Of a DNA stretch of 64,000 bases, positions 35,301-56,569 are shown in pieces; position 1 is the stretch's first letter, and the number at the start of each line of letters is the position of its first letter. Position numbers and translations under genes: made by a program. The notes below the pieces were generated by a model that was not told where the DNA came from, ran no database searches, and saw only the letters and a list, made by a program, of their open reading frames with translations. Location: assembly GCA_964480585.1 (NCBI GenBank), contig CAYZPV010000003.1, positions 156,412 to 220,411 of the forward strand. Direction: 5' to 3'. The stretch is from an uncultured Opitutus sp. Its GTDB lineage: Bacteria > Verrucomicrobiota > Verrucomicrobiia > Opitutales > Opitutaceae.

Positions 35301-35722
35301 GGAAGGGGGTTTGGGATTCCGATTCCGGAAGTGGGTAGCTAAATCGTTTTAGGTTTCAAGTCGGAATTGCGGGCGCCAAGTGCGAGGCTCCGGAAGCGGG
35401 AGCCTTCAGACGACCCTACGGGGTGGGTGAGAAAAATTCTCCCGGCTGAGCGCGGGGGATGGCGAAATAACGCGGAAATAGAGGAGAATATTGCGGCGAG
35501 TGACGCATGGGAGCCGGGGAAGTGAGCATGAAGATACGAGGGTTTTTGGGCGACGCGGACGACCAACAAGGTGACTCTAGCGATTTTCGGGCGGGCTGTC
35601 AGGATGGTAGCGGGAGTTTGTTTTCGGCTGGGCTTGCTGGGCGGAAGGGGAATCCTGGCACGCCAATGGAATGGTAGAGCTTGCCAAGCATTTGCGCTTC
35701 GCGCCACGCTGAGGGCGCTGCC

Positions 35723-36373: not shown

Positions 36374-36387
36374 AGCCGCCCTCGCCC

Positions 36388-39649: not shown

Positions 39650-40939
39650 TCAGACAACGGTGCCCGGCGGCAAAACGGCATTTTTCGCGACGACGAGAAC
39701 GCCATCGCGGACAATCACAAGCCCGTTGGCGTAGGTACCATCGGCCTTGCCGGCGGCGATGAGCACGCAGCCATCGCCGATACGGGTATTTTTATCGATG
39801 ATCGCGCCCTTGATAAGGCAATTTTTCCCCACGCCGAGGTGGGGACGACCCTGCGCGACATTGGCCGCAAGCTGCTCCTCGGTCTCGTAGTAGTCGGAGC
39901 CCATCACGATGGTATCCTCAAGATCGCTGCCCTCGCCAATATAGGAGCGGATGCCGAGCACACAGTGATGGAGCTTGGAATCCGTGATGATGGAGCCGTC
40001 GCCGATGACGACGTGATCTATGGCGCACTTATTGAGCTTGGAAGCAGGGAGGTAGCGATCCTGGGTGTAGATGGGCGCTTGGGGCTCGAAGAAGTTGAAG
40101 GGAGGAAGGGGCTGCGCGAGCGCGAGATTGGCGTCGAAGAAGGCCTTCACCGTGCCGATATCCTCCCAGTACCCCTCGAAAATGTGGGCGTAGAGCTTCT
40201 TCTTGCCGAGGAGGCCGGGGATGACCTCCTTGCCGAAGTCGGTCATCGTATTATCGAGCGCGTCGGCCAGCACCTGGCGGTTGAAGACGTAGATGCCCAT
40301 CGAGGCCAAGCAGTGCTTCTCCTTGGACTCGGTCTGGAGGGTGGCCTGGAGCTGGGGACTGAGAGCGACGCTCTCGATGACGGCAGGATCCTTGGGCTTT
40401 TCGACGAAGCGCGCGATGGAGAGATCGTCGTTGACCGCGGCGAGGCCGAGGCCCTCGACACGGGAAACCGGAAACGGGATCGTGGCGATGGTGACATCCG
40501 CGCCCTTTTCGACGTGCTCGTCGATGATCTTGCGGAAATCCATGCGGTAGAGCTGGTCACCCGAGAGGATCAGTACGAGATCGTGCGGAAACGAACGGAA
40601 GTGTAGCAAGTTGCGGCGTACGGCATCGGCGGTGCCCTGATACCAATCGGAGCCGCGCTCGGTCTGCTCTGCAGCCAAGATATCGACAAAGCCACCACCG
40701 AAGGGGTCGAAGTGATACGTGCTCTGCACGTGGCGGTGCAGGGAGGCAGTCTGGAACTGCGTGAGCAGGAACATCCGGTTGATGTCGCTATTGAGGCAGT
40801 TGCTGATCGGGATATCCACGAGGCGGTATTTGCCCGCGAGGGGTACGGCGGGCTTGCAGCGCTCCAAGGTGAGCGGGTGGAGCCGGGTGCCGCGGCCACC
40901 GCCCATGATCACTGCCAATACGCGTTTCTGAGTCGTCAT
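39650..40939 (-). CDS. glgC: Glucose-1-phosphate adenylyltransferase (ADP-glucose pyrophosphorylase)
   Basis: IMGGGRGTRLHPLT, KPAVPLAGKYRLVDIPISNC, WYQGTADAV, LSGDQLY, FVEKP, ASMGIYVF and YWEDIGT. Confidence 0.95.
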   Translation of the reverse strand: MTTQKRVLAVIMGGGRGTRLHPLTLERCKPAVPLAGKYRLVDIPISNCLNSDINRMFLLTQFQTASLHRHVQSTYHFDPFGGGFVDILAAEQTERGSDWYQGTADAVRRNLLHFRSFPHDLVLILSGDQLYRMDFRKIIDEHVEKGADVTIATIPFPVSRVEGLGLAAVNDDLSIARFVEKPKDPAVIESVALSPQLQATLQTESKEKHCLASMGIYVFNRQVLADALDNTMTDFGKEVIPGLLGKKKLYAHIFEGYWEDIGTVKAFFDANLALAQPLPPFNFFEPQAPIYTQDRYLPASKLNKCAIDHVVIGDGSIITDSKLHHCVLGIRSYIGEGSDLEDTIVMGSDYYETEEQLAANVAQGRPHLGVGKNCLIKGAIIDKNTRIGDGCVLIAAGKADGTYANGLVIVRDGVLVVAKNAVLPPGTVV

Positions 40940-41035: not shown

Positions 41036-41971
41036 ATGGCGAACATTCTTGTGACCGGGGCCGCCGGCTTCATCGGCAGCCACACCACCGACCAACTCCT
41101 TGCCGCAGGCCACCGGGTGGTGGGGGTGGATAATTTTCGGACGGGACGACGCGCCAATCTGGAGGGTGCGCAGCGCTCGAGCGCCTTCAGCTTCCGCGAA
41201 ATGGACGTGGCCGTGCCCGGCGCTCTCGAGGGGGTCGTAGCCGAGGTGGGGCCAGACGCGATCATCCATCTGGCGGCGCTGGTGAGTGTGCAGGACAGCA
41301 TGGAGAATCCGGACCTCAACTATGCGCTCAACATCCAGGCGACGCATCTGGTCGCGGAGGCAGCGCGTAAGGGAAAAGTGCCGCGCATCGTCTTCGCCTC
41401 TTCCGCAGCAATCTTCGGAGATACCACGGACCTGCCTATCCGAGAGAACACCGAGAAGCGCCCGATCAGCCCGTACGGGGCGGCCAAGCTGGCGAGCGAG
41501 GCTATCCTGCTGGGACATGCGGCGGCCTTTGGCTTTGTGGCGCGCTGCCAACGGTACTTCAATGTCTTTGGCCCGCGGCAAGATCCGGCATCGCCGTACT
41601 CGGGCGTGATCTCGATCTTCGATCGCCGCTATCGCGACGGCAAAGGCGTAACCATCTATGGAGATGGCCAACAGACGCGGGACTTCATCTCGGTCCACGA
41701 CGTCGCCCGCGCCAATGTGCTCGCGGCCACGCGCGCCGGGGTGACATCGGGCGCGGCCAACATCTGCACCGGCCGCGCAACCTCGCTGCTGGATATCGTG
41801 GAAATCTTCCGACGCCACTATCCGGCGGCGCCGGCTACGGTACACGCCGCGCCCCGGACGGGCGACATCATCCACTCCCGGGGCGAGCCAACGCTGGCAG
41901 CCGAGGCGCTGGGCTTTCGCGCGGAGGTGACAATCGCGGACGGCCTAGGTGAATTGATCCGTGCGGGATGA
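41036..41971 (+). CDS. pelX: UDP-HexNAc C4-epimerase (SDR), PelX-like
   Basis: VTGAAGFIGS, HLAA, ASSAAIFG, SPYGAAK (YxxxK) and YFNVFGPRQDPASPYSGVISIF. ATGA overlap with pelA. Symbol assigned from context. Confidence 0.75.
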   Translation: MANILVTGAAGFIGSHTTDQLLAAGHRVVGVDNFRTGRRANLEGAQRSSAFSFREMDVAVPGALEGVVAEVGPDAIIHLAALVSVQDSMENPDLNYALNIQATHLVAEAARKGKVPRIVFASSAAIFGDTTDLPIRENTEKRPISPYGAAKLASEAILLGHAAAFGFVARCQRYFNVFGPRQDPASPYSGVISIFDRRYRDGKGVTIYGDGQQTRDFISVHDVARANVLAATRAGVTSGAANICTGRATSLLDIVEIFRRHYPAAPATVHAAPRTGDIIHSRGEPTLAAEALGFRAEVTIADGLGELIRAG

Positions 41972-44829
41972 ATCGACGACTCATCCCGCTCTTAGCAGCC
42001 CTGTTATTCTGTCCCCTGGCGCTTGTCGCGCAGCTGGTCTCGCCGGCACCGGCACCGAGAGCCGAGCCACTGGCGTTTTACGTCAACTACTCCGCCAAAG
42101 TCCCCACGCCGCCACTGTTGGCGCATCCCCTTTCAATCGTCCACCCCGACGCAGAGCTGGATCTCGCCGCCGCGCAGCAGAGCGGGAACAAAGTGCTCGC
42201 CTACCTCAGCGTGGGCGAGGTCGCGCACGACGCGCCGTACCGCGCAGCCATAGTGAGCCGCGGGCTCTCGTTTGCCGGGCGCAATGAAATCTGGAAGTCG
42301 GACATCATCGATCTCAGCGATGCGCGATGGCCCGAATTTCTCGTCGACCAGCTGGCGGCGGGCGCGGCCAAGCGGGGCTTCGATGGATTTTTCCTCGATA
42401 CGCTGGACTCGGTGGAAACCATCGCCCCCGAGCGCAGAGCGGCAGCGGTGGCGGGGCTGGTAACCACGATCCAGCGGCTGCGCCGCACCTTTCCCGCCAA
42501 GCGCATCGTGATCAACCGCGGCTTCTTCGCGTTTGAAGCAGTGAAAGACGCGGTGGATGGCGTGATGGTCGAGTCGCTCTACGAGACACACGACTTTGCG
42601 ACGAAAAGTTACCGCTCCGTGCCGAAAGCTGAGACGGACGCCCTGCTCGCGGCGCTCGCGCCTATCTCTGCCAGTGGACGCTCCGTCTACATCCTAGACT
42701 ATGCCGACCCCAAGCAGCCGGAAGCCGCTGCGACGGCGGCAATGAAGATCCGGGCGCGGGGTTTCCATGCCTTCATCTCGACGCCGGCGCTGGATGGAGA
42801 CATCCTAGGCCCGCTGCGGCCAACGGCACGGCGCATCGCAGCCTTCTACGGAAACCTGACCTCAATCCAGGAGGAGCAGGTCCGCTGGCCAGCGGAGTCT
42901 TTTGTGGGCCAGCGGTTTCAATTGCCGCTGGAGTGGCTCGGCTACGAGGTGGACTACTTCCGCATACAGTCCGCGGCCGACCTGCCCCATCTCGACAGCG
43001 ATCACCGCGCAATCATGCTGCCGCGTTTCCTCGAAATCCCGGTGCATGTGGAGGGAGCATTTATCGACTGGCTGCTCGCGCAGCGAGAGGCGGGCAGGAA
43101 GATCGTGTTTTTCGGGCTGCCGTTTCGCGATCTCGAGCAACAAGCGAGGCTGCTCGCCGCGCTCGGAATCCGAGGCACGGCCAATACGGTGCAGCCGCCG
43201 ATGATCCTGGAGGTGAAAGCGAAGGCGGCGGGCTTTTTCGACTTCGAAGTGCAATCGCCACCGGTGCCGATCGGCCACCGGGACATCCAAGCGCCGCCCG
43301 ATGCGCGGCTGCTCATGGCGGTGGACGCGCGCAGGCCCAACGCACCCGTGGTACGCTTCGACTCGGTATTTACGTGTTCCTGGGGCGGCATGGCTTTCGA
43401 GCCGTACGTGACGTTTCGGCGCCCCGATTTCCGCGAATTCTGGAATCTCGACCCCTTCGCCTTCATCCAGGCGGCGATCGGCGATTTCGACAGCCCGGTG
43501 CCCGATGCGACCACGCGCACAGGCCGACGGATGCTGCTGACGCACATCGACGGGGACGGATTCTCGAATTTCTCCCGCGTGCAGGCGGGCCAGCGTTCGG
43601 CGGAGATCATTCGCGACCGGATACTCAAAAAGTATCCCTATCCCGTCACCGTCTCAATCATCGAAGCGGAGATAAGGGGGCTTATCCGCACCCAGCAGAT
43701 GTCGGAATCGCCAGCGCTGGAAGCGATCGCGCGGGATATCTTCAAGCTCCCCCACGTGGAGCTGGCGTCGCACTCATTTTCGCATCCCTTCTTCTGGATC
43801 GCAGGCGATCGCACCGAGTCGTTTTACGACGAGCAAAACCTGGATTTGAAGGTGCCTTACGACAAACTGGATCTGGCGCGAGAGATCGAGGGGTCGGTGC
43901 GCTATATTAACGAGAAGCTCGCGCCAGCAGACCGACGGGTGAAAGTCTTTCTGTGGACAGGCAACTGCCGCCCGCCGCCCGAGGCGCTCGCGATCGTCCG
44001 CAAGCTCGGCCTCGAGAACCTCAACGGCGGTGACACCATCATCAGCTCGCGCAACCGCACGATCACAGCAGTAGCGCCTCGCACCATGCCATGGGACGAC
44101 GAACTGCAGATCTACGCGCCCAACCAGAACGAGAACGTGTACACCAATAATTGGCGCGGCCCGCTTTTCGGCACGTTCGGGCACGTGATCGAGACCTTCC
44201 AGCTGACAGAGGCACCCCGGCGGCTGAAGCCCATCAACATCTACTATCATTTTTACAGCGGAGACTACCCCTCCTCCCTCAGCGCGCTGGAAAAAATCTA
44301 CGATTGGGTGGGCACCCAGCAGACCCACCCGGTGGAGGTCTCGCACTACGCGCGCATCGCCCGAGACACGCGGGGGACGGAGATCTTCGGGGCCGGGCAC
44401 GAGCGCTGGCTGGTCGTCAATCGCGGCGACTCCCGCACGGTGCGATTGCCAGCCCTTCGCGGAGCGCGAATCGACCTGGCGCGTTCGCGTGGCATCACCG
44501 GCTGGCGCATCGAACACGGCAAAGCCTACGTACATACCGACGGGTCGCCTATCGCCATCGTGGCGCTTGGCAGCGAGCCAAAGGAGCATCTGCGGCTGGA
44601 AAGCGCTTCGGGCGATCTGCAATTCGCGACGCACGGGCCGGCCTCGGCGCGATTCACGGTGGCGACGCCACGCGCCGTGCAGGCGGTCTTCGCGGGCCTG
44701 CCATCCGGAGCCACGGTACGCATCGGAATAGCAGGAAGTACGCGTAGTGAAACAGCGGATACTACGGGCCGCCTCACCCTCGACTTACCCGCGGGGGCGG
44801 ATGTGGATATACAACTCGTCGCGCCATGA
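41968..44829 (+). CDS. pelA: PelA-like bifunctional glycoside hydrolase / carbohydrate deacetylase
   Basis: Signal peptide; hydrolase half AYLSVGE, DGFFLDTLDS, INRGF and VMVESL; deacetylase half THIDGDGF, ASHSFSHPF, LWTGNC, NLNGG, NENVYTNNW and IYYHFYSG; 953 aa. Confidence 0.9.
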   Translation: MNRRLIPLLAALLFCPLALVAQLVSPAPAPRAEPLAFYVNYSAKVPTPPLLAHPLSIVHPDAELDLAAAQQSGNKVLAYLSVGEVAHDAPYRAAIVSRGLSFAGRNEIWKSDIIDLSDARWPEFLVDQLAAGAAKRGFDGFFLDTLDSVETIAPERRAAAVAGLVTTIQRLRRTFPAKRIVINRGFFAFEAVKDAVDGVMVESLYETHDFATKSYRSVPKAETDALLAALAPISASGRSVYILDYADPKQPEAAATAAMKIRARGFHAFISTPALDGDILGPLRPTARRIAAFYGNLTSIQEEQVRWPAESFVGQRFQLPLEWLGYEVDYFRIQSAADLPHLDSDHRAIMLPRFLEIPVHVEGAFIDWLLAQREAGRKIVFFGLPFRDLEQQARLLAALGIRGTANTVQPPMILEVKAKAAGFFDFEVQSPPVPIGHRDIQAPPDARLLMAVDARRPNAPVVRFDSVFTCSWGGMAFEPYVTFRRPDFREFWNLDPFAFIQAAIGDFDSPVPDATTRTGRRMLLTHIDGDGFSNFSRVQAGQRSAEIIRDRILKKYPYPVTVSIIEAEIRGLIRTQQMSESPALEAIARDIFKLPHVELASHSFSHPFFWIAGDRTESFYDEQNLDLKVPYDKLDLAREIEGSVRYINEKLAPADRRVKVFLWTGNCRPPPEALAIVRKLGLENLNGGDTIISSRNRTITAVAPRTMPWDDELQIYAPNQNENVYTNNWRGPLFGTFGHVIETFQLTEAPRRLKPINIYYHFYSGDYPSSLSALEKIYDWVGTQQTHPVEVSHYARIARDTRGTEIFGAGHERWLVVNRGDSRTVRLPALRGARIDLARSRGITGWRIEHGKAYVHTDGSPIAIVALGSEPKEHLRLESASGDLQFATHGPASARFTVATPRAVQAVFAGLPSGATVRIGIAGSTRSETADTTGRLTLDLPAGADVDIQLVAP

Positions 44830-47093
44830 GTTCGCTGCCCAAAATGAAACCGATCCTGCCCTGGTGGCAGCTAGGTCTCCTTTTGGCGCTTTGCGGCCTC
44901 GCGATCTACCAGCTCGTGCCGGACGATCCGCGGCTGATCGATAATCTCATCCGGGATCGCAACCCCCGCGATGCGCGCCGGCAGTTGGAAAAGGTCTCAC
45001 CCGCCAAGCGGGCCAACGACCCCGTGCGGTATTTGCGGCTGGAAGTGGAAATCGCGCGTCTCGAGCTGCGGCCGGATGACCGCGCAGCACTCGACGCGTT
45101 TGCGCGGCGCGGCGTCGCGGCGTGGCGAGAGTCTCGCTACGCGCCATCTATCCTGGCGCTGATCGCGCCTGCGCTCGCGCAGCTCCGCGACCCAGCCGCC
45201 CTCTGGCCCGAGTTCGAGGCCGCGGTGCTAGCCGCACCGGAGAAAGCTCGCGCCATCGCCGGAGAGCGCCTGGCGACGGCGGCCCTCGCCGGCTCCCAAC
45301 CCGCCACGGCCGCGCAGATCTACGCCTCCACGCACCCCGAGGCCACGCGCACGGCGGCCCAGCGCCTTGAAATCGCGCGTTTGCGGCAGCTCGCGGGGCA
45401 GCCCGCTGAAGCGCTGGCGGCGCTCGGCGAAGAGCAGAGCGAAGAGGCACGCGCCCTCCGCTTGTTGCTCCTCCGCGAGCTCAATCGCAATCGCGAGGCG
45501 CTCACACTACTCCTGAGCCGCGCCGCCGCCTCGGCGACGGCTGACGTAAAGCTTGTCGCCGACATCGCCACCGTCGCGCTGCAGGCGGGCGCGCCGGCCG
45601 AAGCTATCCCCGCTGTGCGCAGCCTGCTCGCCGCACAGCCGGACGATGTGGCGACCTGGCGGCAACTGCGCACCCTCCATGTCTCCGCCGGCGATCCTGC
45701 GGGAGCGGTGGAAGCCGCCCAGCGCGCGGCGGCCTTGAGCGAACGCGGGACGGACGACCTCCGTGAGCTGGCGCGAATCCACGAATACGCAGGCCAACCC
45801 GGCCCGGCGTTTGACACCTGGCTGGAGATCGCGCTGCGGAGCGGCGATGTGCCCGCGGTGGAGCGCCTCATCGCGCTCAATCCGGGCCTCTTTCGCGACG
45901 TCGAACTCGCGCGCGCACTCAATCGCGTGGTGCCCCTGCCAGGCCGCGACGACCTCACGCTGCGGCTGGCACGCCTCGAGGTGATGCTCGGCAGCTACGA
46001 CAACGCACGCACGCACTTTGAACAGTACCTGGCCCTGCGGCCGGAGGCGGATGTGATGATCGAATATGCTCACCTGCATCGTGAGCTCTATCGCTTTGGC
46101 GATGCCGAGACCTGGCTCCGACGAGCGGCCGAGCTACGTCCGGATAATCTCGGGCTGCGACGCGAGATCGCCGAATGCCTCGTATATCAGGGCCGCAACA
46201 AGGAGGCGCTGGCGATCTATGCCGAGCTGGCACAGCGCGACCGATCCCCGGAAGTGCTGGATCCCTTCACGCGTCTGGCCGAGACACTGGGCGACTACGA
46301 AGCATTTGCCCGCGCGCTCCGCCAGACGGTGGAGACAGCCACGACTCCGGATGTACGCGACTACAAGATGCTCGCGTATGCGTACGAACTCAACAGCCGC
46401 AGCGATCTCCGCCGAGCGACGCTCGAGGCGGGGCTGAAGGTCTTCCCCAAGGACGACGACCTGCGAATGTCCCTCGCCAGCGCACTCGCCGATGCCCGGC
46501 TGTACCGCGAAGCGCAGAGCACACTCGCGCTCCACACCAAGCTGCGGGAGGATCCTCTCGCGGCGGAGCTCTTCCTCGAACTCATGCGGCTCAACAACGA
46601 CACCGCCGCGGAACGCCGATTTCTGCGGGAGACCTTCTCGCCCGCGGTGCTCGAGGACGAGGATTTCCTGATGCACTCGGCCTATGCATGGGAGGCACTG
46701 CGCGAGTATCCGCGCGCCGAGGCAGTTCACCGCCAGCTCCAGGCGCGCCATCCGGCGAACTTCCAGCACGCCGGAGACCTCGCTCGCATCGCGCTCCTCA
46801 GGGGGCATCCCAAGGAGGCCAAGCAGGTGCTCGCTCCTTTCCTCGCCGCGCCCACTCCTGCCGTGCTCAAACTGGCTGCCGAGATCGCATCGTCCGCGGG
46901 AGATCATCGCAACGCCGAGAAATACCAGGCCGCTTATCTTTCCGCGATGCGCAACGCCTCCGCGACCGACTGGGGCGCACTGGGCGACATACGGCTCTCC
47001 CGGGGCGACCGCATCGGCGCCAAGCGCGCTTACGCGGAGGCGCTCCGCCGGATGCACGCGGAACTCGGCACAAACAAAGGAGGTGGGCGATGA
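44826..47093 (+). CDS. pelB: PelB-like TPR scaffold (N-terminal part only, no barrel)
   Basis: N-terminal hydrophobic anchor (PWWQLGLLLALCGLAIYQL), then ~700 aa of Ala/Leu/Arg/Glu-rich helical repeats. Occupies the pelB position; ATGA overlap with pelA. Confidence 0.7.
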   Translation: MSSLPKMKPILPWWQLGLLLALCGLAIYQLVPDDPRLIDNLIRDRNPRDARRQLEKVSPAKRANDPVRYLRLEVEIARLELRPDDRAALDAFARRGVAAWRESRYAPSILALIAPALAQLRDPAALWPEFEAAVLAAPEKARAIAGERLATAALAGSQPATAAQIYASTHPEATRTAAQRLEIARLRQLAGQPAEALAALGEEQSEEARALRLLLLRELNRNREALTLLLSRAAASATADVKLVADIATVALQAGAPAEAIPAVRSLLAAQPDDVATWRQLRTLHVSAGDPAGAVEAAQRAAALSERGTDDLRELARIHEYAGQPGPAFDTWLEIALRSGDVPAVERLIALNPGLFRDVELARALNRVVPLPGRDDLTLRLARLEVMLGSYDNARTHFEQYLALRPEADVMIEYAHLHRELYRFGDAETWLRRAAELRPDNLGLRREIAECLVYQGRNKEALAIYAELAQRDRSPEVLDPFTRLAETLGDYEAFARALRQTVETATTPDVRDYKMLAYAYELNSRSDLRRATLEAGLKVFPKDDDLRMSLASALADARLYREAQSTLALHTKLREDPLAAELFLELMRLNNDTAAERRFLRETFSPAVLEDEDFLMHSAYAWEALREYPRAEAVHRQLQARHPANFQHAGDLARIALLRGHPKEAKQVLAPFLAAPTPAVLKLAAEIASSAGDHRNAEKYQAAYLSAMRNASATDWGALGDIRLSRGDRIGAKRAYAEALRRMHAELGTNKGGGR

Positions 47094-48607
47094 AGCGCTT
47101 GCTTCTGGGCGCCCTGCTGCTCTCGGCCGCCTACGTGCCGATCCCTGCTGCCGAGCCAGCCGGATTCCTGCCCGACGCGGAGATCCTCTCGCGCGCGCCC
47201 ACGCTCGGAATCGAGGAGCAGCGGTATCTGGTGTATCTGTATGCCCGGCTCAACAAGCCGAAGGTGGCCGAGGCGATCGCCGAGCAGATCCTGAAGACCA
47301 ATCCCAGCGATCGACAGACGCTGCTCGTATTGGCCTCGATGTACGTGGAGCAAAAGGATCCGAAGGCCGTGCTGCGCACCGCGCGCGCGTTTCTCAAATT
47401 TTATCCCTCCGACCACCAAGGACTCTACTTTCTAGGCGCAGGCCACTATCTCGCCAAGGAATACGCCATCGCCAACGAGGTGCTGCGGAGCCTCAAGCAA
47501 ACGCAATTCGCAGGGAATCTGTATCCCTACGAAACCGACCTCGCCGCCTCCGCCTACGCGGCGGGCGACTGGCACCGCGCGATGCTCTCCTACCAGGAAC
47601 TGCTACGCCATCATAAGCTCGGCGATCAACTCCGCGACGAGGTACGCCGCACGTTGGACGAGCTCTATCGCGCGCATCTCCCGCGGCTGGACCTGACGGC
47701 ATCGAGGGTGCGGCTGGAACGCGCCGAGGCATGGCGCTATGGAGCCTCCCACGGCATGCACATCAGCGGTCGCCACTGGCTCGACGTACGCTATGGACGC
47801 GACGACGTGGACCTCGAGGCCGCGCCAGGACTGCAAGCCACGCGTGCCGATCGGCAGGAAGTCTCCGCCAGCCTTTCCACCGTGTACGATCGCCGCCTGC
47901 GCACCGAATTGTGGGCTGGAGCGTTTGGCGAAGGAGCTTTTGGCGGGGGGCGTGCGACGGTGACGTTTGCCCGCCAACGCGAGGCATTTGTGGAGGTCGT
48001 CCTCAACGCACGCTCGACCGATAGCCTCACCCTTGAGGCTCTCGACGGCCGCCAGCACTCCGTGGGCTTGGGACTCAACTGGCTGGTCGAGGCCGACCTG
48101 AATCTAGCCATGCGTGCCCAGACCAGGGAAGTCCGCGTCGAGGGCATACGCCTCGGCCGTGGATCTAGCCTCGACATCAACTTCGACTACACCGTCTGGC
48201 GACAAGGGCCGCGCATCACGGCGGGCTACCGGGGATCGATGGGGCAGTTTACACCAGACACTGGTTTCGACGCGCGCCTTACAGGCCCGCTGGTCGACCC
48301 GGCGGCCGGCTTGCTTGGCCAGCAGACCATCGTGTCCAATCTCGTCAGCCAGGCAATCAACCGGCACGGAGTAGGACTCACCCTCACCGACAATCTCGCC
48401 GATGCGTGGATCTACCGCGTGACCGCGGGCACTGACTACGACTTCGAGCTTTCTTCCGTGGGCTGGAATGGCTCGCTAGCGCTCACCTTTCTCCCGCGCA
48501 AGAGCATCGAGATCACGGCCGAGGCCGGCTACACCTCCAGCGCTTCGGCTAGCAATGCCGGCTCCTCCGCGACGCTTTTCAACTTCTACATTCGCGCCTA
48601 TCACTAA
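47090..48607 (+). CDS. Secreted TPR + outer-membrane beta-barrel protein (PelB C-terminal-like porin)
   Basis: ATG 47090 with SD AAGGAGGTG and its own signal peptide MKRLLLGALLLSAAYVPIPAA. ~4 TPR-like repeats, then ~310 aa of amphipathic beta strands ending LFNFYIRAYH. Confidence 0.7.
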   Translation: MKRLLLGALLLSAAYVPIPAAEPAGFLPDAEILSRAPTLGIEEQRYLVYLYARLNKPKVAEAIAEQILKTNPSDRQTLLVLASMYVEQKDPKAVLRTARAFLKFYPSDHQGLYFLGAGHYLAKEYAIANEVLRSLKQTQFAGNLYPYETDLAASAYAAGDWHRAMLSYQELLRHHKLGDQLRDEVRRTLDELYRAHLPRLDLTASRVRLERAEAWRYGASHGMHISGRHWLDVRYGRDDVDLEAAPGLQATRADRQEVSASLSTVYDRRLRTELWAGAFGEGAFGGGRATVTFARQREAFVEVVLNARSTDSLTLEALDGRQHSVGLGLNWLVEADLNLAMRAQTREVRVEGIRLGRGSSLDINFDYTVWRQGPRITAGYRGSMGQFTPDTGFDARLTGPLVDPAAGLLGQQTIVSNLVSQAINRHGVGLTLTDNLADAWIYRVTAGTDYDFELSSVGWNGSLALTFLPRKSIEITAEAGYTSSASASNAGSSATLFNFYIRAYH

Positions 48608-48620
48608 ATCCACCCTCACC

Positions 48621-49169
48621 ATGAGCCGACTCCTCGTACTCCTTGCCACGCTGCTTTTCAGCACTGGCTGCGCCACCGTGGTCCATCAGGGCAACCAGAG
48701 CCCTCACGCACACGCCGTCACGCGTGTGCTGCTGCCACCCTTCTTCAACGCGACGGACGACGAGCACGCGAGCCGCGCGCTCACCGAGATGACTGGCAGC
48801 GCCCTCGTGGAAGCGGGCATACCGCTCTTCCAGACGGAGGAGACTCTTCTGAAATCCGCCGCAGACAAGGCCCAAGGGCCGGATGGCCGCTACGCCGAAC
48901 TGGCGCGCCAGATGGGCGTCTCGCATCTGGTAATCGGCACCGTGCACGAGTACCGCTACAAGACCGATCTCGATGGCGACCCCGCAGTCGGCATCACGCT
49001 CCGGCTCGTCGATGCGGCCACCGGCCAGACACTCTGGCAGGGTTCGAGCGGCAACGTAGGCTATGCCTTTGCGTCGCTCACCTCGGCAAGCCAGAAGGCC
49101 GTGAACGCGCTCGTGACCGACCTACCGGTCGCCGGCAATAAATTTTGGCGCACGCGCACGAGGAAGTAA
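48621..49169 (+). CDS. pelC: PelC-like outer-membrane lipoprotein
   Basis: Lipobox LFSTGC, LLPPFFN, and GTVHEYRYKTDLDGDPAVGITLRLVD..TGQTLW. Start set at ATG 48621. Confidence 0.85.
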   Translation: MSRLLVLLATLLFSTGCATVVHQGNQSPHAHAVTRVLLPPFFNATDDEHASRALTEMTGSALVEAGIPLFQTEETLLKSAADKAQGPDGRYAELARQMGVSHLVIGTVHEYRYKTDLDGDPAVGITLRLVDAATGQTLWQGSSGNVGYAFASLTSASQKAVNALVTDLPVAGNKFWRTRTRK

Positions 49170-49208
49170 GCAATCCAGACCCGCGTTATCCGCCTTAGGC
49201 CTGCCGCG

Positions 49209-50561
49209 ATGAACGTCCAAGACGCCCTCAAGCCCAAATCCATCCTGCTCGACGCCGCCCTGATCGGCGGCCTGCTGGTCGGGCTCAACGCGCTCTTCGA
49301 CCGCAGCCAACTCGGCTGGACGAATTTCAATCCTTCGCCGTACCTCCTACTCCCGCTGTTGATCGGAGGCCGCTACGGCTTCACTGCGGGGCTCTTATCA
49401 GGCGTTGGCACGAGCCTCGTGGTGCTGGCGCTGCAGAGCTTCGGAGGGGCGGGCTCGCCCAGCGCAGCCCTCGCACAAGCCCCCTATCTGCACGCGAGCT
49501 TTCTCTTTCTCGGCGGGATCGCGGGAGAGCTCTACGGGTGGTTTCGCCGCGAACGGGCGCAAGCTGCCGCGCAGCTCGAAAAGCTTCAGACCTCGGTGCG
49601 CCGTTTGGATGCCGATGTCAGTTACCTGCGCGGGGTGAAGGATGAGCTCGACCGCGCGGTTGCCGCCCGCGACGGCGAGGTGAGCACGCTCGACGCGGAG
49701 TTGCGGCGCTTGTACGCCGCATCCCGCGAAGACCTGCCTTCGGCTACGCTCGCCTTTCTCCGCCGCCAAGTCCGCCTCACCGACGCGGCGCTTTACGCCA
49801 TCCCCTCCGGCGAGGGTGCATTGACGCGGCTCGCGCTCATCGGTCGCGACAATCATCTGCCTGAGTCCCTCGGCCGCAAGGCCAGCGCGGTGGTGCGGCT
49901 GGCAATCGAGCGATCTTCGCTGGTAACGCTGCCCGAGCTGCTCCAGCAGCGAGAACCCTCCTGCGAAGATCCCATCCTGCTCGCGGCGCCGCTGCGCGAC
50001 GCCGCGGGCAAAACTCTGGCCGTGCTCGTCGTCTCGGGGATGCCCTTTATTTCCTTCACCGCGCAGACCGGAAATCTGATCTCGCTAATCTGCGGTTGGG
50101 CGGGAGAAGTGCTCGACCTCGCTTCCGGAGCGGGCCCAGGCCGCTATCGCATCGTCGCTGGCCGCGACCTTCAGCGCATCTTCACGCGCGAGCATTTCCG
50201 CCATCTGCTCCAGCTGGCATTTGAGGCAAACAAGGGGCACCGCCTGCCGTCGTCGATCGTCGTCTTTTCCCTGCCCGGCGTCAGCCCGCGCGAACAGGCG
50301 CGCTTCGAAGGTGTGATCGCGAGCGCCATTCGCGCCGGCGACTATGCCGCCGAGCTTGGCCACAGTCACCCGCACCTCGCGGTGCTGCTGCCCCTCGTGG
50401 GCGAACGCGGAGCGAGCATCTTCATCGAACGCTGCCGGCAGTTTGTGCGCCAGAGCGGACCATGGCCAAGCGAACTCGACGTGCGCCGGGTGGAGATAGG
50501 CCGTGTCACCGATGTCGAGGCGATCCTTGCCGAGCTCGACGGCGCAAGCTCCAAGGCATGA
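49209..50561 (+). CDS. pelD: PelD-like c-di-GMP receptor: TM + GAF + degenerate GGDEF
   Basis: PYLLLPLLIGGRYG in the TM region, a coiled coil, a GAF-like segment, RxxD I-site (IRAGD), LAVLLPL...FIER, and no GGDEF motif. Confidence 0.8.
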   Translation: MNVQDALKPKSILLDAALIGGLLVGLNALFDRSQLGWTNFNPSPYLLLPLLIGGRYGFTAGLLSGVGTSLVVLALQSFGGAGSPSAALAQAPYLHASFLFLGGIAGELYGWFRRERAQAAAQLEKLQTSVRRLDADVSYLRGVKDELDRAVAARDGEVSTLDAELRRLYAASREDLPSATLAFLRRQVRLTDAALYAIPSGEGALTRLALIGRDNHLPESLGRKASAVVRLAIERSSLVTLPELLQQREPSCEDPILLAAPLRDAAGKTLAVLVVSGMPFISFTAQTGNLISLICGWAGEVLDLASGAGPGRYRIVAGRDLQRIFTREHFRHLLQLAFEANKGHRLPSSIVVFSLPGVSPREQARFEGVIASAIRAGDYAAELGHSHPHLAVLLPLVGERGASIFIERCRQFVRQSGPWPSELDVRRVEIGRVTDVEAILAELDGASSKA

Positions 50562-51556
50562 GCGATAGCACACGCATTTCACGCCTCCAGCCGGTGCTGC
50601 TCGTGGTGGCATTCATGCTACAGGCGATCTCGCTGCCGCTGCTGTTTCGCGAGGGTCTGCTGCCTTGGGCATTTCTCGCGCACGCGGCGGGCGCGGTCGC
50701 CTGGGGCTTAGGAGCAGCCCGACTCTTCCCTCGGGGACAGCGTCCGGCGTGGTGGCAGTCGGGCGCATGGGCGCTGACGTTTCCAGTGGTGGGGCCGCTC
50801 GCCTCGCTGTGCTTCGCGTCGATCCTTCGCCGTCCGCCAGTCGACAACAGTGGGCAGCGCTACGTCGTATGGAACGAGCAACCCGCAGGCGCGTGGGATA
50901 ACGCGCTGCCTGCGGGAGCCTCAGGGCAATCAATCGTGGAGATACTCCAGAGCCCGCGCACTCAACTACGGCGCAATGCCGTGCTGGCGCTGCGTGAACT
51001 CGATCCGCAGCTCGCGATCCCGCTCCTCCGGAAAGGCCTCCAGGATAGCGACGAACAGGTGCGCATCTACGCGCAGAATATCCTGAGCACGATGCTGGAG
51101 CGGTTTGAAGAAGGCATCAAGCAACTCGAAAACCGCATCGCCTCGGGACAGGGCGACGCAGCAACAGCCACCCGGCTCGCCGAGCAGTATTTCGAACTTG
51201 TCTACCTCGACGTCGCAGGGGACGACGAGACCGCCGCCCACTATCTCGCCAAGGCGCTTGCGCTGCTCGAAAAGGCCTTTGGCGCCGCGCCCGACGACCC
51301 TGCGATCGTGTTTCTCGGTTTCAAATATGCGCTGCGCGCCCGCGATGCGGGCGCCGCACGCCTCTGGCTGGAGCGGCTCGAACAACGCAAGTCAGACGCG
51401 CAACAAGTCCTCCCCTGGCGGATGGAGCTGGCCTTCCTCGAGGGCGACTGGAAGCGGCTCCGGGCGCTCTTTGAGGAGTTTGCCCGAGCCCGCTACATCA
51501 ACCCACGCATCGAGGAGCTGTCCCGCTTCTGGCTCGGCGCACCCGCTTCGGCATGA
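50558..51556 (+). CDS. pelE: PelE-like membrane protein with HEAT/TPR region
   Basis: N-terminal TMs (LTFPVVGPL), LLRKGLQDSDEQVRIYA, and a helical C-terminus. ATGA overlaps on both sides. Confidence 0.8.
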   Translation: MSDSTRISRLQPVLLVVAFMLQAISLPLLFREGLLPWAFLAHAAGAVAWGLGAARLFPRGQRPAWWQSGAWALTFPVVGPLASLCFASILRRPPVDNSGQRYVVWNEQPAGAWDNALPAGASGQSIVEILQSPRTQLRRNAVLALRELDPQLAIPLLRKGLQDSDEQVRIYAQNILSTMLERFEEGIKQLENRIASGQGDAATATRLAEQYFELVYLDVAGDDETAAHYLAKALALLEKAFGAAPDDPAIVFLGFKYALRARDAGAARLWLERLEQRKSDAQQVLPWRMELAFLEGDWKRLRALFEEFARARYINPRIEELSRFWLGAPASA

Positions 51557-53133
51557 GCACGCCCGACGCCAAGATCGCCGATGTCTGCCTGATCCTGGAG
51601 GGCACCTATCCCTACGTGCAAGGCGGCGTCTCCTCCTGGGTCCACCAGATCGTCACTGAACTGCCCGAGGTCACGTTTGCGCTTTTCTTCCTGGGCAGCA
51701 CTCGCGAGCAGGCGAAGCAGAAGCGTTATACACCGCCGGCCAACGTCATTTCGCTCACGGAGGTTTTTCTTTTCGAGAAGCTGCCCCCGGATCAGCTCAT
51801 ACCTGCGCCCCTGCGGCGCGAGCACAAGGATGCGCTCTACACCGTGCTGCGCGATTTCTACCTCGCGCAGGACGACGCGGAGCGGCAGGCGGTATTTCTC
51901 AAGGTGATCGATACCCTCGACATCATCGAGGCCACGGGCAGCCCGGTGACTTTCGGCAATTTCCTCCGCGATGAAGAGGCGTGGATGCTGCTGACGGAGG
52001 CGGCGGAAAAATTCGCCGCCGAGGAATCTTTCATCGATTTTTTCTGGGCCGCGCGCTTCGTGCACCTGCCGGTGTGGATCGCTCTGTCGCATCGTAAGGA
52101 GATCCCCCCTGCTCGCGCGTACCACAGCGTTTCCACCGGGTACGCAGGCATGCTCGGTGCGATCGCCTCACGCTATCACCGTGCGCCCTATCTCATCACT
52201 GAACACGGCATCTACACGAAGGAACGCATCGCCGAGATCAGCCAGGCGAGCTGGATCTACGATCCGCCAAGCAAGTACTTCGACGTGCGAGAGGGCATGG
52301 GCGTCTTCAAACAGCTTTGGATCGATCTCTTCATGTTCCTCGGGCAGGTCTCGTATGCGAGCGCGCAGCGCATCGTCTCGCTCTTCGAGGGCAACACATA
52401 CCTCCAGATTGAGTTTGGCGCCGAGGCACGCCGGTTGGAAGTCATCCCCAACGGCATCGACCCGAGCAAATTCGACCCGGCGCTGCAAACGCGCACCGCG
52501 CGCCTCTCTGCGGGGCTCGGTGAGGAGATTGTGATCGGCTTTGTCGGTCGCGTCGTGCCGATCAAGGATGTAAAGACGCTCATTCGAGCGGCGCGCACCG
52601 TCGTGGCGCGCGAACCGCGCGCTGTTTTTCACCTCATCGGGCCGACGGAGGAAGACCCGGACTACTTCGAAGAGTGCAAGCAGATGGTGACTCTAATGGG
52701 TCTCGAGAAGAAGGTGCTATTCCTCGGACCGAGGAATATTCGCGAGATCCTCTCCAGCGTCGACGTATGCCTGCTCACCAGTATCAGCGAAGGGCTGCCG
52801 TTGATCATCCTCGAAGCGTTCGCCGCAGGCATCCCATGCGTGGCCACCGATGTAGGTGCGTGCCGAGAACTCATCTTCGGCCGTACTCCTGAGGACAAGG
52901 CAATCGGGCGGGCCGGGCTCCTTACCAAGATCTGCTCTCCGCTCGACACTGCCGACGCCGTGCTGCGCGTGATTTCCAGTGCCGATCACCTCCTCCGAAT
53001 GGGCCAGGCCGGTCGCACCCGCGCCGAACGCCACTACCGCCAATCGGAGATCATGGGGAAGTACCGCTCATTTTACACCGATCATGGCTGGGCACAACTC
53101 CCCTCGCCCGCCGATCAACCCACCGCACCCTAA
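51553..53133 (+). CDS. pelF: PelF-like GT4 glycosyltransferase
   Basis: DVCLILEGTYPYVQGGVSSW, HSVSTGYAG, TEHGIYTKER, VIPNGID, GRVVPIKDVKT, and SISEGLPLIILE (EX7E). Confidence 0.92.
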   Translation: MSTPDAKIADVCLILEGTYPYVQGGVSSWVHQIVTELPEVTFALFFLGSTREQAKQKRYTPPANVISLTEVFLFEKLPPDQLIPAPLRREHKDALYTVLRDFYLAQDDAERQAVFLKVIDTLDIIEATGSPVTFGNFLRDEEAWMLLTEAAEKFAAEESFIDFFWAARFVHLPVWIALSHRKEIPPARAYHSVSTGYAGMLGAIASRYHRAPYLITEHGIYTKERIAEISQASWIYDPPSKYFDVREGMGVFKQLWIDLFMFLGQVSYASAQRIVSLFEGNTYLQIEFGAEARRLEVIPNGIDPSKFDPALQTRTARLSAGLGEEIVIGFVGRVVPIKDVKTLIRAARTVVAREPRAVFHLIGPTEEDPDYFEECKQMVTLMGLEKKVLFLGPRNIREILSSVDVCLLTSISEGLPLIILEAFAAGIPCVATDVGACRELIFGRTPEDKAIGRAGLLTKICSPLDTADAVLRVISSADHLLRMGQAGRTRAERHYRQSEIMGKYRSFYTDHGWAQLPSPADQPTAP

Positions 53134-54512
53134 TGGCCGGCATCGGATTTCAACTCACGAAACTCATGGCCAAGCGCACCTTCGCCGGTGGCTTGCAGGC
53201 CTACGGTTTCGCGGCGCTCATCGGAAGCGGCCCGTGGGTGCTCTCGATGGTCACGCTCGCGCTGCTGGGCCTCGTGGTCAATCGCACTGGGGCAGCCAGG
53301 GAACTCGATCTGTTCTTTGTGGCGGTGACGCACATCTTCGGCTTCTCGCTCATACTCACCGGTCCGCTCCAACTGCTGCTCTCCCGCTTTGCGGCCGATG
53401 CCGTCTACGAGCGCAAACCGGAGCAGGTATTCCCCTCCTTCCTTGGCGGGCTCGCGCTCTCGCTCGCGGCCAACGCGATCTTCGGCGTCGTGTTCTTCTT
53501 CGGCTTCGTCCCGGCCGCGCCGCTCTTCCAATTCTCCGCCACCGGCGTGTTGATGATCGTATCCGCGATCTGGATAGGCGCCATCTACCTTACGGCGGTG
53601 CGGGACTACACCGCAGTCATAAAGTGCTTCCTGCTCGGCTACGCCGTGAGCTTCGGGGCTGGCTGGGGGCTCACCCTGCCACTCGGAGTCGCAGGCACGA
53701 TGGCGGGCTTTCTCCTCGGCCAAGTCGTGCTGCTGCTCGCCATGATCCGCGTCGTGTACCGTGAGTACGGCACGCATGGCGCGCCGAGTTTCGCGTTTCT
53801 CCGCTATTTCAAGCGGCACTCATCTCTCGCTGCCTGCGGCCTGGTTTACAATCTAGGTATCTGGATCGACAAGCCGCTCCACTGGTGGCTCTCCCCGCAC
53901 GGCCACCAAGTGGCGGGCGCACTCTGGGCCTCGCCGCTCTACGATCAGGCGGTGTTTCTGAGCTTCCTCTCAGTCGCTCCGGGCATGGCCGTTTTCCTCC
54001 TCACGCTGGAGACGACATTTGCCGATCGCTACTCGGAGTTTTTCCGGCTCGTTGTGGCCAAGGGGAAGCTGCGCGAGATACTCGCGACCAAGGCGGAGAT
54101 GGTGGAGGCCCTGCGCGATGGCCTGTCGAGGCTGCTGAAATTTCAAGGCGGCGTCACCCTCGCGCTCATCCTGAGCGCCGATCACTTGCTAGCTGCACTG
54201 GGGCTCGGCGCCGTGCAGACGATCGTGTTTCAAGTCACGCTCGTCGGCGTCTGCCTCCTAGTGCTTTTCCTGGCCCTTCTCACCGTACTCTTCTATCTGG
54301 ACCGCCTGCGCGAGGCATTGTGGTGCTGCGGACTCTTTGCCGTACTCAATCTGATGGTGACTGTAGCCGGCTTGATGGCTGACGAACGTTGGTACGGCCT
54401 GGGCTTCACCGTGGCCGCCGGCGCCGGTGCGCTGCTGGCAGGCGCACTCTCCAACCGCGCGCTGCGGCGGTTGGAATACGAAACTTTTACCGCGCAACCG
54501 CTCTACTCTTGA
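53133..54512 (+). CDS. pelG: PelG-like polysaccharide transporter / polymerase-associated membrane protein
   Basis: Characteristic MAGIGFQL start, GPWVLS, YNLGIWIDK, YDQAVFLSFLSVAPG, LETTFADRY and LFYLD; ~12 TMs; TAATG overlap. Confidence 0.92.
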   Translation: MAGIGFQLTKLMAKRTFAGGLQAYGFAALIGSGPWVLSMVTLALLGLVVNRTGAARELDLFFVAVTHIFGFSLILTGPLQLLLSRFAADAVYERKPEQVFPSFLGGLALSLAANAIFGVVFFFGFVPAAPLFQFSATGVLMIVSAIWIGAIYLTAVRDYTAVIKCFLLGYAVSFGAGWGLTLPLGVAGTMAGFLLGQVVLLLAMIRVVYREYGTHGAPSFAFLRYFKRHSSLAACGLVYNLGIWIDKPLHWWLSPHGHQVAGALWASPLYDQAVFLSFLSVAPGMAVFLLTLETTFADRYSEFFRLVVAKGKLREILATKAEMVEALRDGLSRLLKFQGGVTLALILSADHLLAALGLGAVQTIVFQVTLVGVCLLVLFLALLTVLFYLDRLREALWCCGLFAVLNLMVTVAGLMADERWYGLGFTVAAGAGALLAGALSNRALRRLEYETFTAQPLYS

Positions 54513-54579: not shown

Positions 54580-56433
54580 ATGTGCGGCATCGTCGGCTAC
54601 GTCGGTAAACAGAAAGCAGCTCCCCTGATCCTCGAGGGCCTCAAGCGCCTAGAGTACCGCGGCTACGACTCCGCCGGGGTGACCATCCTGCAGGAGGGTC
54701 GCTTCGATCTCGTGAAAAAGATCGGCCGCGTCGCCAACCTCGAAAAAGAGCCTGCAACGCACAAGCTAAACGGAAGCTATGGCATGGGCCACACTCGCTG
54801 GGCGACTCATGGCGGTGTGACGGATGCCAACGCCCATCCCCATATCAGCAGCGACGGCCAGATCGCACTGATCCATAACGGCGTGATCGAGAACTACTCG
54901 AAGATCAAAAAATTCCTGCTCGAAAAGGGCTATACCTTCAAGTCGGAGACCGACACTGAGGTGCTCTGCAATCTCATCGCCTACCACTACTCCAAGGAGC
55001 CCGCAGCGCAGAATGGGGACAGCCGTTTCGTATCCAGCGTGCGGAAGGCCCTCCTCCATGCGGAGGGCACCTATGGCATCGTCGTGATGGCGCTCGATGC
55101 GCCGGGCGAGCTCGTCACTGCCCGGAAAGGCTCGCCGCTCATCCTTGGACTTGGCGATGGAGAAAGCCTCGTCGCCTCCGATGTGGCGGCGATCGTGAGT
55201 CGCACGCAGAACGTCGTCTACCTGAAAGATGGCGAGATCGCGCACCTCACGCCAAAGAACTTTTCGATCACGACACTCAACTCCGAAGCCGTGAGCGCGG
55301 TGGTGGACAAGGTCACCTGGTCCATCGCCGACGCAGAACTTGGCGGCTACGCGCACTTCATGGAGAAAGAGATCTTTGAGCAGCCCGTAGCGCTGGAAAA
55401 TGCGATGCGTGGGCGCTTCTCCGAAGACGGGAGCACCGCGCAATTTGGCGGCCTCAATATCGCGCCCGGCGAATTTCGCGGCATCGAGCGCTTCATGTTC
55501 TGCGCCTGCGGCACCGCGCTGCACGCATGCATGGTGACGGAGCACATGATCGAACGCTTCGCGCGCATACCGGTGGAGTGCGACTACGCCTCCGAGTTCC
55601 GCTATCGCAACTCCCCGCTGCACCGCAACACGCTCTTCTTCGTAATGAGCCAGTCGGGCGAGACAATCGATACCCTGGCCGCCCTCCGCGAGGCCAAGCG
55701 CAAGGGCTACAAGGTGCTTGCGGTGAACAATGTCGTGGGATCCACGATCGCCCGCGAAGCCGATGGCGGCATCTACCAGCATGTCGGCCCGGAGGTCGGT
55801 GTCGCCTCCACCAAGGCCTTCACCTCGCAGGTGCTGATCGGGGCGATGCTGGCGCTCTACATCGGCCGTATGCGCGATCTCAGTTTCGGCGCCGGAGTGC
55901 GCTACGTCGCCGCGCTCAAGGGCGCACCGGATCTCGTGCGCAAGGCGCTGGAGCAGGCACCGCATATCAAGGCCATCGCGAAGCGCTATGCGCACTACAC
56001 CGATATGCTTTTCCTCGGCCGCCTCTCGCTCTTCCCCATCGCGCTAGAGGGCGCGCTCAAGCTAAAGGAGATCTCCTACATCCACGCCGAGGGGTACCCT
56101 GCTGCGGAAATGAAGCACGGGCCCATAGCGCTCGTGAGCGAAAAGTGCCCGGCCGTCTTTCTCGCCCCCAGCGGCGAGATCCTCAACAAAATCGTCTCTT
56201 CGATGCAGGAGATCAAAGCTCGGAAGGGCCCCGTAATCGCAATCGTCACCGAGAATGTGGAACTGCCCGCTGGTCTGGCAGACGAGACCATCGTGGTGCC
56301 CGAATGTCACGAGGCTGTGCTGCCCATCGTGATGTCGATCCCGGTGCAGCTCCTCAGTTACTACATCGCCGTCGAACGCGGCTGCGACGTCGACAAGCCC
56401 CGAAATCTCGCGAAGTCCGTCACGGTGGAATGA
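54580..56433 (+). CDS. glmS: Glutamine--fructose-6-phosphate aminotransferase
   Basis: MCGIVGY, LEYRGYDSAG, GHTRWATHG, SQSGETIDT, GVASTKAFT, EGALKLKEISYIHAEGY and PRNLAKSVTVE. Confidence 0.97.
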   Translation: MCGIVGYVGKQKAAPLILEGLKRLEYRGYDSAGVTILQEGRFDLVKKIGRVANLEKEPATHKLNGSYGMGHTRWATHGGVTDANAHPHISSDGQIALIHNGVIENYSKIKKFLLEKGYTFKSETDTEVLCNLIAYHYSKEPAAQNGDSRFVSSVRKALLHAEGTYGIVVMALDAPGELVTARKGSPLILGLGDGESLVASDVAAIVSRTQNVVYLKDGEIAHLTPKNFSITTLNSEAVSAVVDKVTWSIADAELGGYAHFMEKEIFEQPVALENAMRGRFSEDGSTAQFGGLNIAPGEFRGIERFMFCACGTALHACMVTEHMIERFARIPVECDYASEFRYRNSPLHRNTLFFVMSQSGETIDTLAALREAKRKGYKVLAVNNVVGSTIAREADGGIYQHVGPEVGVASTKAFTSQVLIGAMLALYIGRMRDLSFGAGVRYVAALKGAPDLVRKALEQAPHIKAIAKRYAHYTDMLFLGRLSLFPIALEGALKLKEISYIHAEGYPAAEMKHGPIALVSEKCPAVFLAPSGEILNKIVSSMQEIKARKGPVIAIVTENVELPAGLADETIVVPECHEAVLPIVMSIPVQLLSYYIAVERGCDVDKPRNLAKSVTVE

Positions 56434-56528: not shown

Positions 56529-56569
56529 AAAAAAACAAAAGGCACGCGCCACCAGGTGACGCGTGCCTT
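56529..56569 (-). terminator. Intrinsic terminator, minus strand (possibly bidirectional)
   Basis: AAGGCACGCG (56539-56548) / CGCGTGCCTT (56560-56569) with an A-rich tract on the plus strand, giving a U-tract on the minus strand. Confidence 0.8.

Follow-up and report, generated by a model that had tools for sequence, protein, structure and literature searches.

A pel exopolysaccharide locus of the Opitutaceae in which PelB is encoded as two proteins

The Opitutaceae are abundant in soil and freshwater and have been little studied. We analysed a stretch of 64,000 nucleotides (nt), referred to here as the window, from an uncultured Opitutus sp. of this family (Verrucomicrobiota; NCBI GenBank assembly GCA_964480585.1, contig CAYZPV010000003.1, positions 156,412 to 220,411 of the forward strand). 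Nine consecutive open reading frames (ORFs) on the + strand span positions 41036-54512 of the window and make up a locus for Pel, a sticky exopolysaccharide of biofilms, pelX-A-B1-B2-C-D-E-F-G, with glmS behind it. The genes, with the role predicted for each product, are as follows:

pelX, 41036-41971, + strand, 311 amino acids (aa): epimerase from the SDR (short-chain dehydrogenase/reductase) family, acting at C4 of uridine diphosphate (UDP)-N-acetylglucosamine (GlcNAc) and UDP-N-acetylgalactosamine (GalNAc)
pelA, 41968-44829, + strand, 953 aa with signal peptide: periplasmic bifunctional alpha-1,4-GalNAc hydrolase and CE21 de-N-acetylase
pelB1, 44826-47093, + strand, 755 aa: N-terminal part of PelB, with a hydrophobic anchor at about 9-31 and a long scaffold of tetratricopeptide repeats (TPRs)
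pelB2, 47090-48607, + strand, 505 aa: C-terminal part of PelB, with its own signal peptide, about four TPR-like repeats, a stalk helix and a 16-strand outer-membrane barrel
pelC, 48621-49169, + strand, 182 aa with lipobox FSTG-C: outer-membrane lipoprotein forming a ring on PelB
pelD, 49209-50561, + strand, 450 aa: inner-membrane receptor for cyclic di-GMP (c-di-GMP), with transmembrane helices, a GAF domain and a degenerate GGDEF domain
pelE, 50558-51556, + strand, 332 aa: inner-membrane protein with a helical-repeat cytoplasmic domain
pelF, 51553-53133, + strand, 526 aa: cytoplasmic GT4 glycosyltransferase, the polymerase
pelG, 53133-54512, + strand, 459 aa: polytopic inner-membrane component of the Pel exporter
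glmS, 54580-56433, + strand: glutamine-fructose-6-phosphate transaminase, first step towards UDP-GlcNAc

Five junctions between these pel genes are ATGA overlaps (X/A, A/B1, B1/B2, D/E and E/F), the F/G junction is a TAATG overlap, and gaps of 13 nt and 39 nt separate B2 from C and C from D, respectively. Note that the mechanical ORF list extends pelB2, pelC and pelE each further upstream; the starts used here are the ATG codons after the preceding stop, which open a signal peptide, a lipobox or a membrane segment, and an independent gene caller picked the same three starts on six other assemblies. Identical gene calls and lengths recur on six independent metagenome assemblies. The locus is an intact, ordinary-looking Pel cluster, and its sole unusual feature is that PelB is made as two proteins.

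PelF matched the NCBIfam equivalog model for PelF, NF038011, with 514 bits against a cutoff of 100. It also matched DUF3492 (PF11997, 270 bits) and Glycos_transf_1, and carries the EX7E motif as E413-x7-E421. PelG, which has many hydrophobic segments, matched PF16933 with 429 bits from end to end (1-452 of 452). PelA aligned over 847 residues (59-905) with full-length P. thermotolerans PelA (PDB 9CGY) at an E value of 1.2e-116, and its GH114 Pfam domain covers residues 66-276. The hydrolase residues are kept (D139-GFFL-D144 and E202, with D144 and E202 corresponding to D160 and E218 of the P. aeruginosa protein, PaPelA), as are H526-I-D528-G-D530, H602-SFS-H606, E722 and H761 of the CE21 deacetylase, a residue set that was defined by mutagenesis (PMC12022489). 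The catalytic set of PelA is complete, that is, for both the GH114-type hydrolase and the CE21 deacetylase.

PelC matched the PelC chain 9h80_C of the PelBC cryo-EM structure (E 2.2e-19) as well as 5T0Z and 5T11 (E 1e-12 to 9e-15), and its GNA1162-like Pfam match falls slightly under the cutoff. Near residue 157, a position counted from the alignment, it has a tyrosine where P. aeruginosa PelC has Trp-149, the lipid-embedded residue highlighted in PMC12141448. PelD matched the crystal structures 4ETZ and 4DMZ with an E value of 1.5e-10 over residues 226-424 and has a GAF_3 Pfam match; its R375-AG-D378 falls on the RGLD I-site and R408, counted from the alignment, on R402 of PaPelD. For PelE there is no curated model to test against and no structure is available, and phmmer of PelE against the PDB matched only artificial alpha-Rep/HEAT proteins. 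By BLASTP, however, PelE is 25% identical (E 6e-10, residues 138-325 against 158-346) to the product of the Paraburkholderia graminis gene that lies between pelD and pelF, and it shows hydrophobic segments at 10-32 and 71-90 and HEAT/TPR Pfam matches. No NCBIfam model matched PelA, PelC, PelD, PelE or PelG.

PelX matched the Pfam Epimerase family with 205.8 bits, and its best PDB matches, 6WJB and 6WJ9 (E 7e-60), rank ahead of the GalE, WbpP and WbgU entries; 6WJB and 6WJ9 are P. protegens PelX according to the preprint that deposited them. The motifs GAAGFIG (8-14), SS (122-123) and Y147-xxx-K151 are all present. These observations support the assignment of PelX as a putative UDP-GlcNAc C4-epimerase closest to the characterised PelX. 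The glmS product matched NF001484 (782 bits) and TIGR01135 (759 bits). The gene starts 67 nt after pelG on the same strand, no terminator-like site was found between the two, and glmS directly follows pelG in most Opitutaceae loci, with 79-90% identity. At 56539-56569, between glmS (+) and a gene for resistance-nodulation-division (RND) efflux (-), there is a strong, perfect hairpin of 14 bp, G+C-rich and flanked by A/T runs, which probably ends both transcription units as a bidirectional terminator. A promoter scan was uninformative for this phylum, giving one weak match against 2.4 expected by chance. The glmS gene is probably linked to the pel operon and may be co-transcribed with it. On a Paraburkholderia plasmid, pelA-pelG are followed by GH114, galE and glmS genes; precursor-supply genes therefore adjoin pel in the Opitutaceae and on this plasmid alike, and the linkage recurs.

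The initial annotation of this DNA had proposed the P. aeruginosa gene order with pelX in front, six overlapping junctions out of eight, and intact catalytic motifs in PelA, PelF and PelD. Nine ORFs lie in that order, the junction count is exact, and the motifs are all present and correctly placed wherever a reference alignment exists. Moreover, comparisons with hidden Markov models (HMMs), PDB entries and structures place all nine genes in Pel and in no other exopolysaccharide system.

PelB1 has TPR Pfam matches and a single N-terminal hydrophobic segment. PelB2 begins with MKRLLLGALLLSAAYVPIPAA, has TPR matches, and matched PF24604 (B-barrel_PelB_C) with 39.8 bits against a cutoff of 31. Searches of PDB sequences with PelB1 and PelB2 (phmmer) and with an 18-sequence PelB2 profile returned generic or designed TPR proteins only, never the PelB entries 9H80 or 5WFT, and neither hhalign nor hmmsearch gave a significant match between the PelB2 profile and Paraburkholderia PelB. 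Because PelB2 could not be linked to proteobacterial PelB by sequence, a comparison of structures was needed. The AlphaFold2 model of PelB2, built with 35 homologues, has a predicted local distance difference test score (pLDDT) of 91.2 and consists of helices at 29-196 followed by exactly 16 strands. In Foldseek its top PDB match was 9h80_M, PelB of the P. aeruginosa PelBC complex (E 2e-19, template modelling score 0.75), followed by BcsC and PgaA. The scaffold-plus-porin architecture of PelB is present, with TPR matches in both PelB1 and PelB2 and the 16-strand porin in PelB2. What is missing is the single chain that runs from an inner-membrane anchor to the outer-membrane barrel; in its place are two overlapping ORFs in different frames. 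A single-chain PelB is typical of the family and is not an essential feature of it, fission having been reported elsewhere (PMC7112194).

The split is identical in six independent metagenome assemblies and occurs in more than 10 species of Opitutaceae as well as in other verrucomicrobial orders; different frames encode pelB1 and pelB2 in at least 11 loci of Opitutaceae and in four loci of those other orders. In 12 of these 15 split loci a start codon overlaps the pelB1 stop by 4 nt, and the N-terminus of PelB2 resembles a signal peptide in nearly all 15. Stand-alone homologues form 37 clusters for PelB1 (741-776 aa) and 73 clusters for PelB2 (nearly all 478-568 aa). The pelB split is real and maintained.

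We searched a set of 5.8 billion proteins with concatenated PelB1 and PelB2, seeking fused homologues and the position of the break, and this query returned stand-alone PelB1-type proteins only. Fused forms were found by reading the frames in related loci. pelB is continuous in three relatives, L018 (Cephaloticoccus), L020 and L014; the complete fused ORF is 1238-1239 aa long in L018 and L020, and that of L014 is 5'-truncated at the contig end. In the fused forms a short linker joins the C-terminus of B1 to the conserved 'L.RA..L.IEE.RYLVYLYAR' stretch with which mature B2 starts, and no internal signal peptide was found in them. PelB1 is collinear with residues 1 to about 755 of the 1239-aa fused pelB product of L018 and L020. 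PelB1 and PelB2 therefore correspond to one PelB, broken near residue 755. In a neighbour-joining tree of PelF (without support values), split forms fall both on the Opitutaceae side and on the side of the other orders, and fused forms in two separate places; therefore, more than one fission or fusion event is needed.

Work on the P. aeruginosa protein bears on what such a split would mean. The N-terminus of PaPelB is apolar and lacks a cleavage site, the protein "may physically bridge two membranes", residues 332-436 of PelB are bound by PelA, and a construct of PelB residues 762-1193 behind a foreign signal peptide assembles with PelC (all PMC12141448). The assembly of that construct makes a stand-alone PelB2 plausible. 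By analogy, the verrucomicrobial PelB2 would be close to a natural version of the 762-1193 construct, and PelB1 would keep the anchor and the PelA-binding region. Since split and fused pelB occur within one family, we see roughly even chances that the covalent membrane bridge of PelB is dispensable and that export may proceed through a non-covalent, two-protein scaffold-plus-porin, in some relatives perhaps without PelC.

Three loci of Opitutaceae type have no pelC between pelB(2) and pelD (L007, 7309-7385; L014, 1592-1650; L020, 7532-7741). PelB2 is 54% identical to that of the window in L007, 47% in L014 and 38% in L020, compared with 57-66% in the other close Opitutaceae loci. That the loci without pelC have the most diverged PelB2 hints at a possible co-evolution of barrel and PelC.

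The closest relatives of PelF come from Opitutaceae metagenome-assembled genomes (MAGs) and the cultured Oleiharenicola lentus (65-82% identity). Limisphaerales, Verrucomicrobiales and Pedosphaera-type genomes follow at 48-54%, and records labelled Nitrospirota, Desulfovibrionaceae and Planctomycetota at 37-41%, which is also the range of the best matches outside the phylum save for a few apparently mislabelled MAGs. Proteobacterial plasmid copies are 38-42% identical, verrucomicrobial PelF forms one clade in the neighbour-joining tree, and the identity of glmS to its Opitutaceae counterparts reaches 90%. Within the cluster the GC content ranges over 0.61-0.68 and in the surrounding DNA over 0.59-0.68, without a step; this uniformity argues against a recent transfer and against a proteobacterial contig. 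Judged by these comparisons, the contig is verrucomicrobial, as the initial annotation had supposed in calling its source a probable Verrucomicrobium (the nearest genomes are Opitutaceae and not Proteobacteria), and the pel operon is old in the phylum.

A clade of Limisphaerales type (L025-L028, L031, L033, L034, L036, L039 and L040) has only pelC-D-E-F, with no pelG, pelA or pelB within 10 kb. In L025, pelF is followed by genes for a CarboxypepD_reg protein, a beta-lactamase and DUF1552/DUF1592 proteins. Several MAG records of this type bear the names Klebsiella, Akkermansia muciniphila or Proteobacteria, apparently in error.

We consider it likely that the locus is a functional Pel exopolysaccharide operon of the Gram-negative type, inherited vertically within the Opitutaceae. 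In such an operon GlmS would commit fructose-6-phosphate to the UDP-GlcNAc route and PelX would epimerise UDP-GlcNAc at C4 to UDP-GalNAc. PelF would then polymerise the sugar at a complex formed in the inner membrane by PelD, PelE, PelF and PelG, turned on by binding of c-di-GMP at the RxxD I-site of PelD. Once in the periplasm, the alpha-1,4-GalNAc chain would be trimmed and partly de-N-acetylated by PelA, giving a cationic polymer that would leave through the 16-strand PelB barrel under the PelC lipoprotein ring. PelB1 would serve as a TPR scaffold, anchored in the inner membrane through its uncleaved N-terminal helix, PelB2 would be exported by its own signal peptide and bring the remaining TPRs together with the stalk helix and the porin, and the two genes may be translationally coupled through their 4-nt overlap. 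We infer the polymer chemistry and the gating by c-di-GMP from conserved residues; that the product would be partially de-N-acetylated alpha-1,4-GalNAc is suggested by PelX, the PelA residues and glmS, and PelB1 presumably associates with both PelB2 and PelA. The analysis establishes the gene identities, the conservation of catalytic and ligand-binding residues and of the split, and the PelB2 fold.

Several points weigh against a functional Pel operon. No sequence similarity of PelB1 or PelB2 to PelB of Pseudomonas or Paraburkholderia could be detected, even with profiles, and their assignment draws on one Pfam match, the predicted fold, gene position and the fused relatives. The PelD_GGDEF Pfam match of PelD reaches just 14 bits, under the cutoff, some close relatives are without pelC, so that the export module is evolutionarily labile, and glmS may have its own promoter. 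The case is built from sequence and structure prediction. The donor specificity of PelF, moreover, cannot be read from its sequence, as is general for GT4 enzymes, and this leaves room for Pel-like machinery with a product other than the alpha-1,4-GalNAc/galactosamine polymer of Pseudomonas, differing in its hexosamine, its linkage or a further modification. The identity of PelF to proteobacterial PelF, at about 38-42%, and the high divergence of the PelB barrel and PelE would fit such a product. The operon is headed, however, by a PelX-type epimerase whose closest solved relative is the UDP-GlcNAc C4-epimerase PelX, PelA retains the GH114-type hydrolase residues together with the whole CE21 catalytic set, and the cluster is linked to glmS. 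Together these features point to a deacetylated amino-sugar polymer, and we regard a different product as unlikely.

Two further readings concern the integrity and the origin of the locus. Given that PelB in its canonical form is one chain of about 1200 aa and that L014, L018 and L020 have a fused gene, the split might be a frameshift or assembly error, or the sign of a decaying, non-functional operon. An error or decay would hardly recur in six independent assemblies, and the split is kept, with intact ORFs, among species whose copies of these proteins share only 50-66% identity. The stop/start overlap in most of the split loci, a PelB2 signal peptide gained relative to the fused forms, the 110 stand-alone protein clusters and the confident PelB2 model (pLDDT 91) likewise speak for two genuine genes. 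We therefore rejected a frameshifted or pseudogenised pelB, on the conserved split, the overlap, the signal peptide and the stand-alone clusters, and consider it very improbable. Recent horizontal acquisition from Proteobacteria, or a contig that is itself proteobacterial, might be entertained because Pel was first described in Proteobacteria and because proteobacterial labels occur on a few MAG records among the relatives. Those assigned to Klebsiella or Proteobacteria group with Limisphaerales, however, and so are apparently mislabelled; the nearest relatives of PelF, PelG and glmS are from Opitutaceae (65-90%), the order X-A-B1-B2-C-D-E-F-G-glmS is common to Opitutaceae relatives, and proteobacterial PelF copies are just about 40% identical. 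We rejected a recent transfer on the Opitutaceae affinity, the monophyly of verrucomicrobial PelF and the even GC content, and its probability is in our view close to negligible. Vertical inheritance of a working Pel operon thus remains the reading that we prefer.

Comparison with known systems sets out what is shared and what differs. The pelABCDEFG operon of P. aeruginosa (PA3064-PA3058) has the same seven functions in the same order. Also shared are a four-domain PelA with hydrolase residues of the D160/E218 type and deacetylase residues of the H526/D528/D530/H600/H604/E723/H761 type, a PelD with the RxxD I-site and an equivalent of R402, the EX7E motif of PelF, the PelC lipoprotein, and a PelB whose 16-strand barrel is preceded by TPRs and a stalk helix. 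In contrast to P. aeruginosa, PelB is here the product of two genes, of 755 aa with the inner-membrane anchor and of 505 aa with its own signal peptide, pelX stands in front and glmS behind, and sequence identity in PelB and PelE is very low or undetectable. P. protegens Pf-5 (pelX-pelABCDEFG) shares the position of pelX directly upstream of pelA and supplies the closest solved relative of PelX (6WJB), but its PelB is fused, it has no glmS linkage, and its pel genes are regulated by FleQ and Gac/Rsm, of which no equivalent is evident here. The P. graminis plasmid pPHS1_P (L056, 972-17875) shares an epimerase gene (galE) and glmS linked to pelA-pelG, and a detectably homologous PelE. That cluster differs in a fused PelB (1324 aa), in the downstream position of the epimerase, in being plasmid-borne, and in an extra stand-alone gene for a GH114 endo-alpha-1,4-polygalactosaminidase. 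The record annotates its pelA as 'sugar ABC transporter' and its pelC as 'LpoB'.

Fission of pelB has been noted in aquatic thermophiles (PMC7112194, Fig. 5iii). Those loci and that of a Maridesulfovibrio MAG (L046, 1-13900) have the same division into an anchored TPR protein and a TPR-porin protein with a signal peptide, but they belong to other lineages, and the L046 proteins are of 946 aa (transmembrane anchor) and 625 aa (signal peptide). In L046, pelA also consists of two ORFs, a pelX-like gene follows pelG, and no pelC match was found. In the Nitrospirota/Leptospirillia loci L044, L047, L048, L050 and L051, pelA appears as two genes, with the GH114 part between pelC and pelD and the deacetylase part after pelG; where pelB was read, in L044, L047 and L050, it is fused (1101-1156 aa). 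Among other synthase-dependent exopolysaccharide systems, AlgK/AlgE, BcsC and PgaA likewise combine a periplasmic TPR scaffold with an outer-membrane barrel, and both fused and separate solutions exist. The alginate system pairs a lipoprotein, AlgK, with an 18-strand barrel, AlgE, that has no TPRs, whereas here TPRs occur in both halves and the first half is apparently anchored in the inner membrane.

Our literature searches found no experimental work on Pel in Verrucomicrobia or Opitutaceae, in keeping with the initial annotation, which knew of no experimental description from the Planctomycetes-Verrucomicrobia-Chlamydiae (PVC) superphylum. The novelty that it attached to the locus was overrated, however, since verrucomicrobial PelA, the pelX-pelA arrangement and pelB fission had already been published. 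Six full-length PelA homologues from Verrucomicrobiota, of unknown operon status, were tabulated in 2025 (PMC12022489), and the position of pelX upstream of pelA is described in the PelX preprint, in whose supplement we found no Verrucomicrobia. The genome set of the operon classification in PMC7112194 includes four Verrucomicrobia, which among the files searched appear in the genome list only. Pel loci are known to be widespread and pelB fission as such is not new; the locus adds to a well-known system in a phylum where that system has been seen bioinformatically and never studied.

The locus adds a complete, apparently functional pel cluster to the gene inventory of the Opitutaceae. The split PelB with fused sister forms is its most useful detail, in that a conserved fission beside fused relatives bears on the question raised by the PelBC study, whether PelB must bridge both membranes as one chain. 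Studies of Pel-dependent aggregation outside Proteobacteria and Firmicutes could turn to cultured relatives that carry the same operon, for example Oleiharenicola lentus and Synoicihabitans lomoniglobus. Public annotation of these genomes gives PelB1, PelB2, PelC and PelE only as TPR or hypothetical proteins, and automated surveys will therefore undercount complete pel operons in the phylum.

Upstream of the locus, the + strand at 35681-39504, about 1.5 kb from pelX, encodes a response regulator of LuxR type and a large histidine kinase whose sensor domains are Reg_prop/Y_Y_Y. No diguanylate cyclase was seen among the scanned neighbours. Between the two-component genes and pelX lies glgC (39650-40939), divergent from pelX, and downstream of the locus there is an RND efflux pair on the opposite strand. 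The sole Rfam match in the window is a tRNA gene at 1524-1597 (-).

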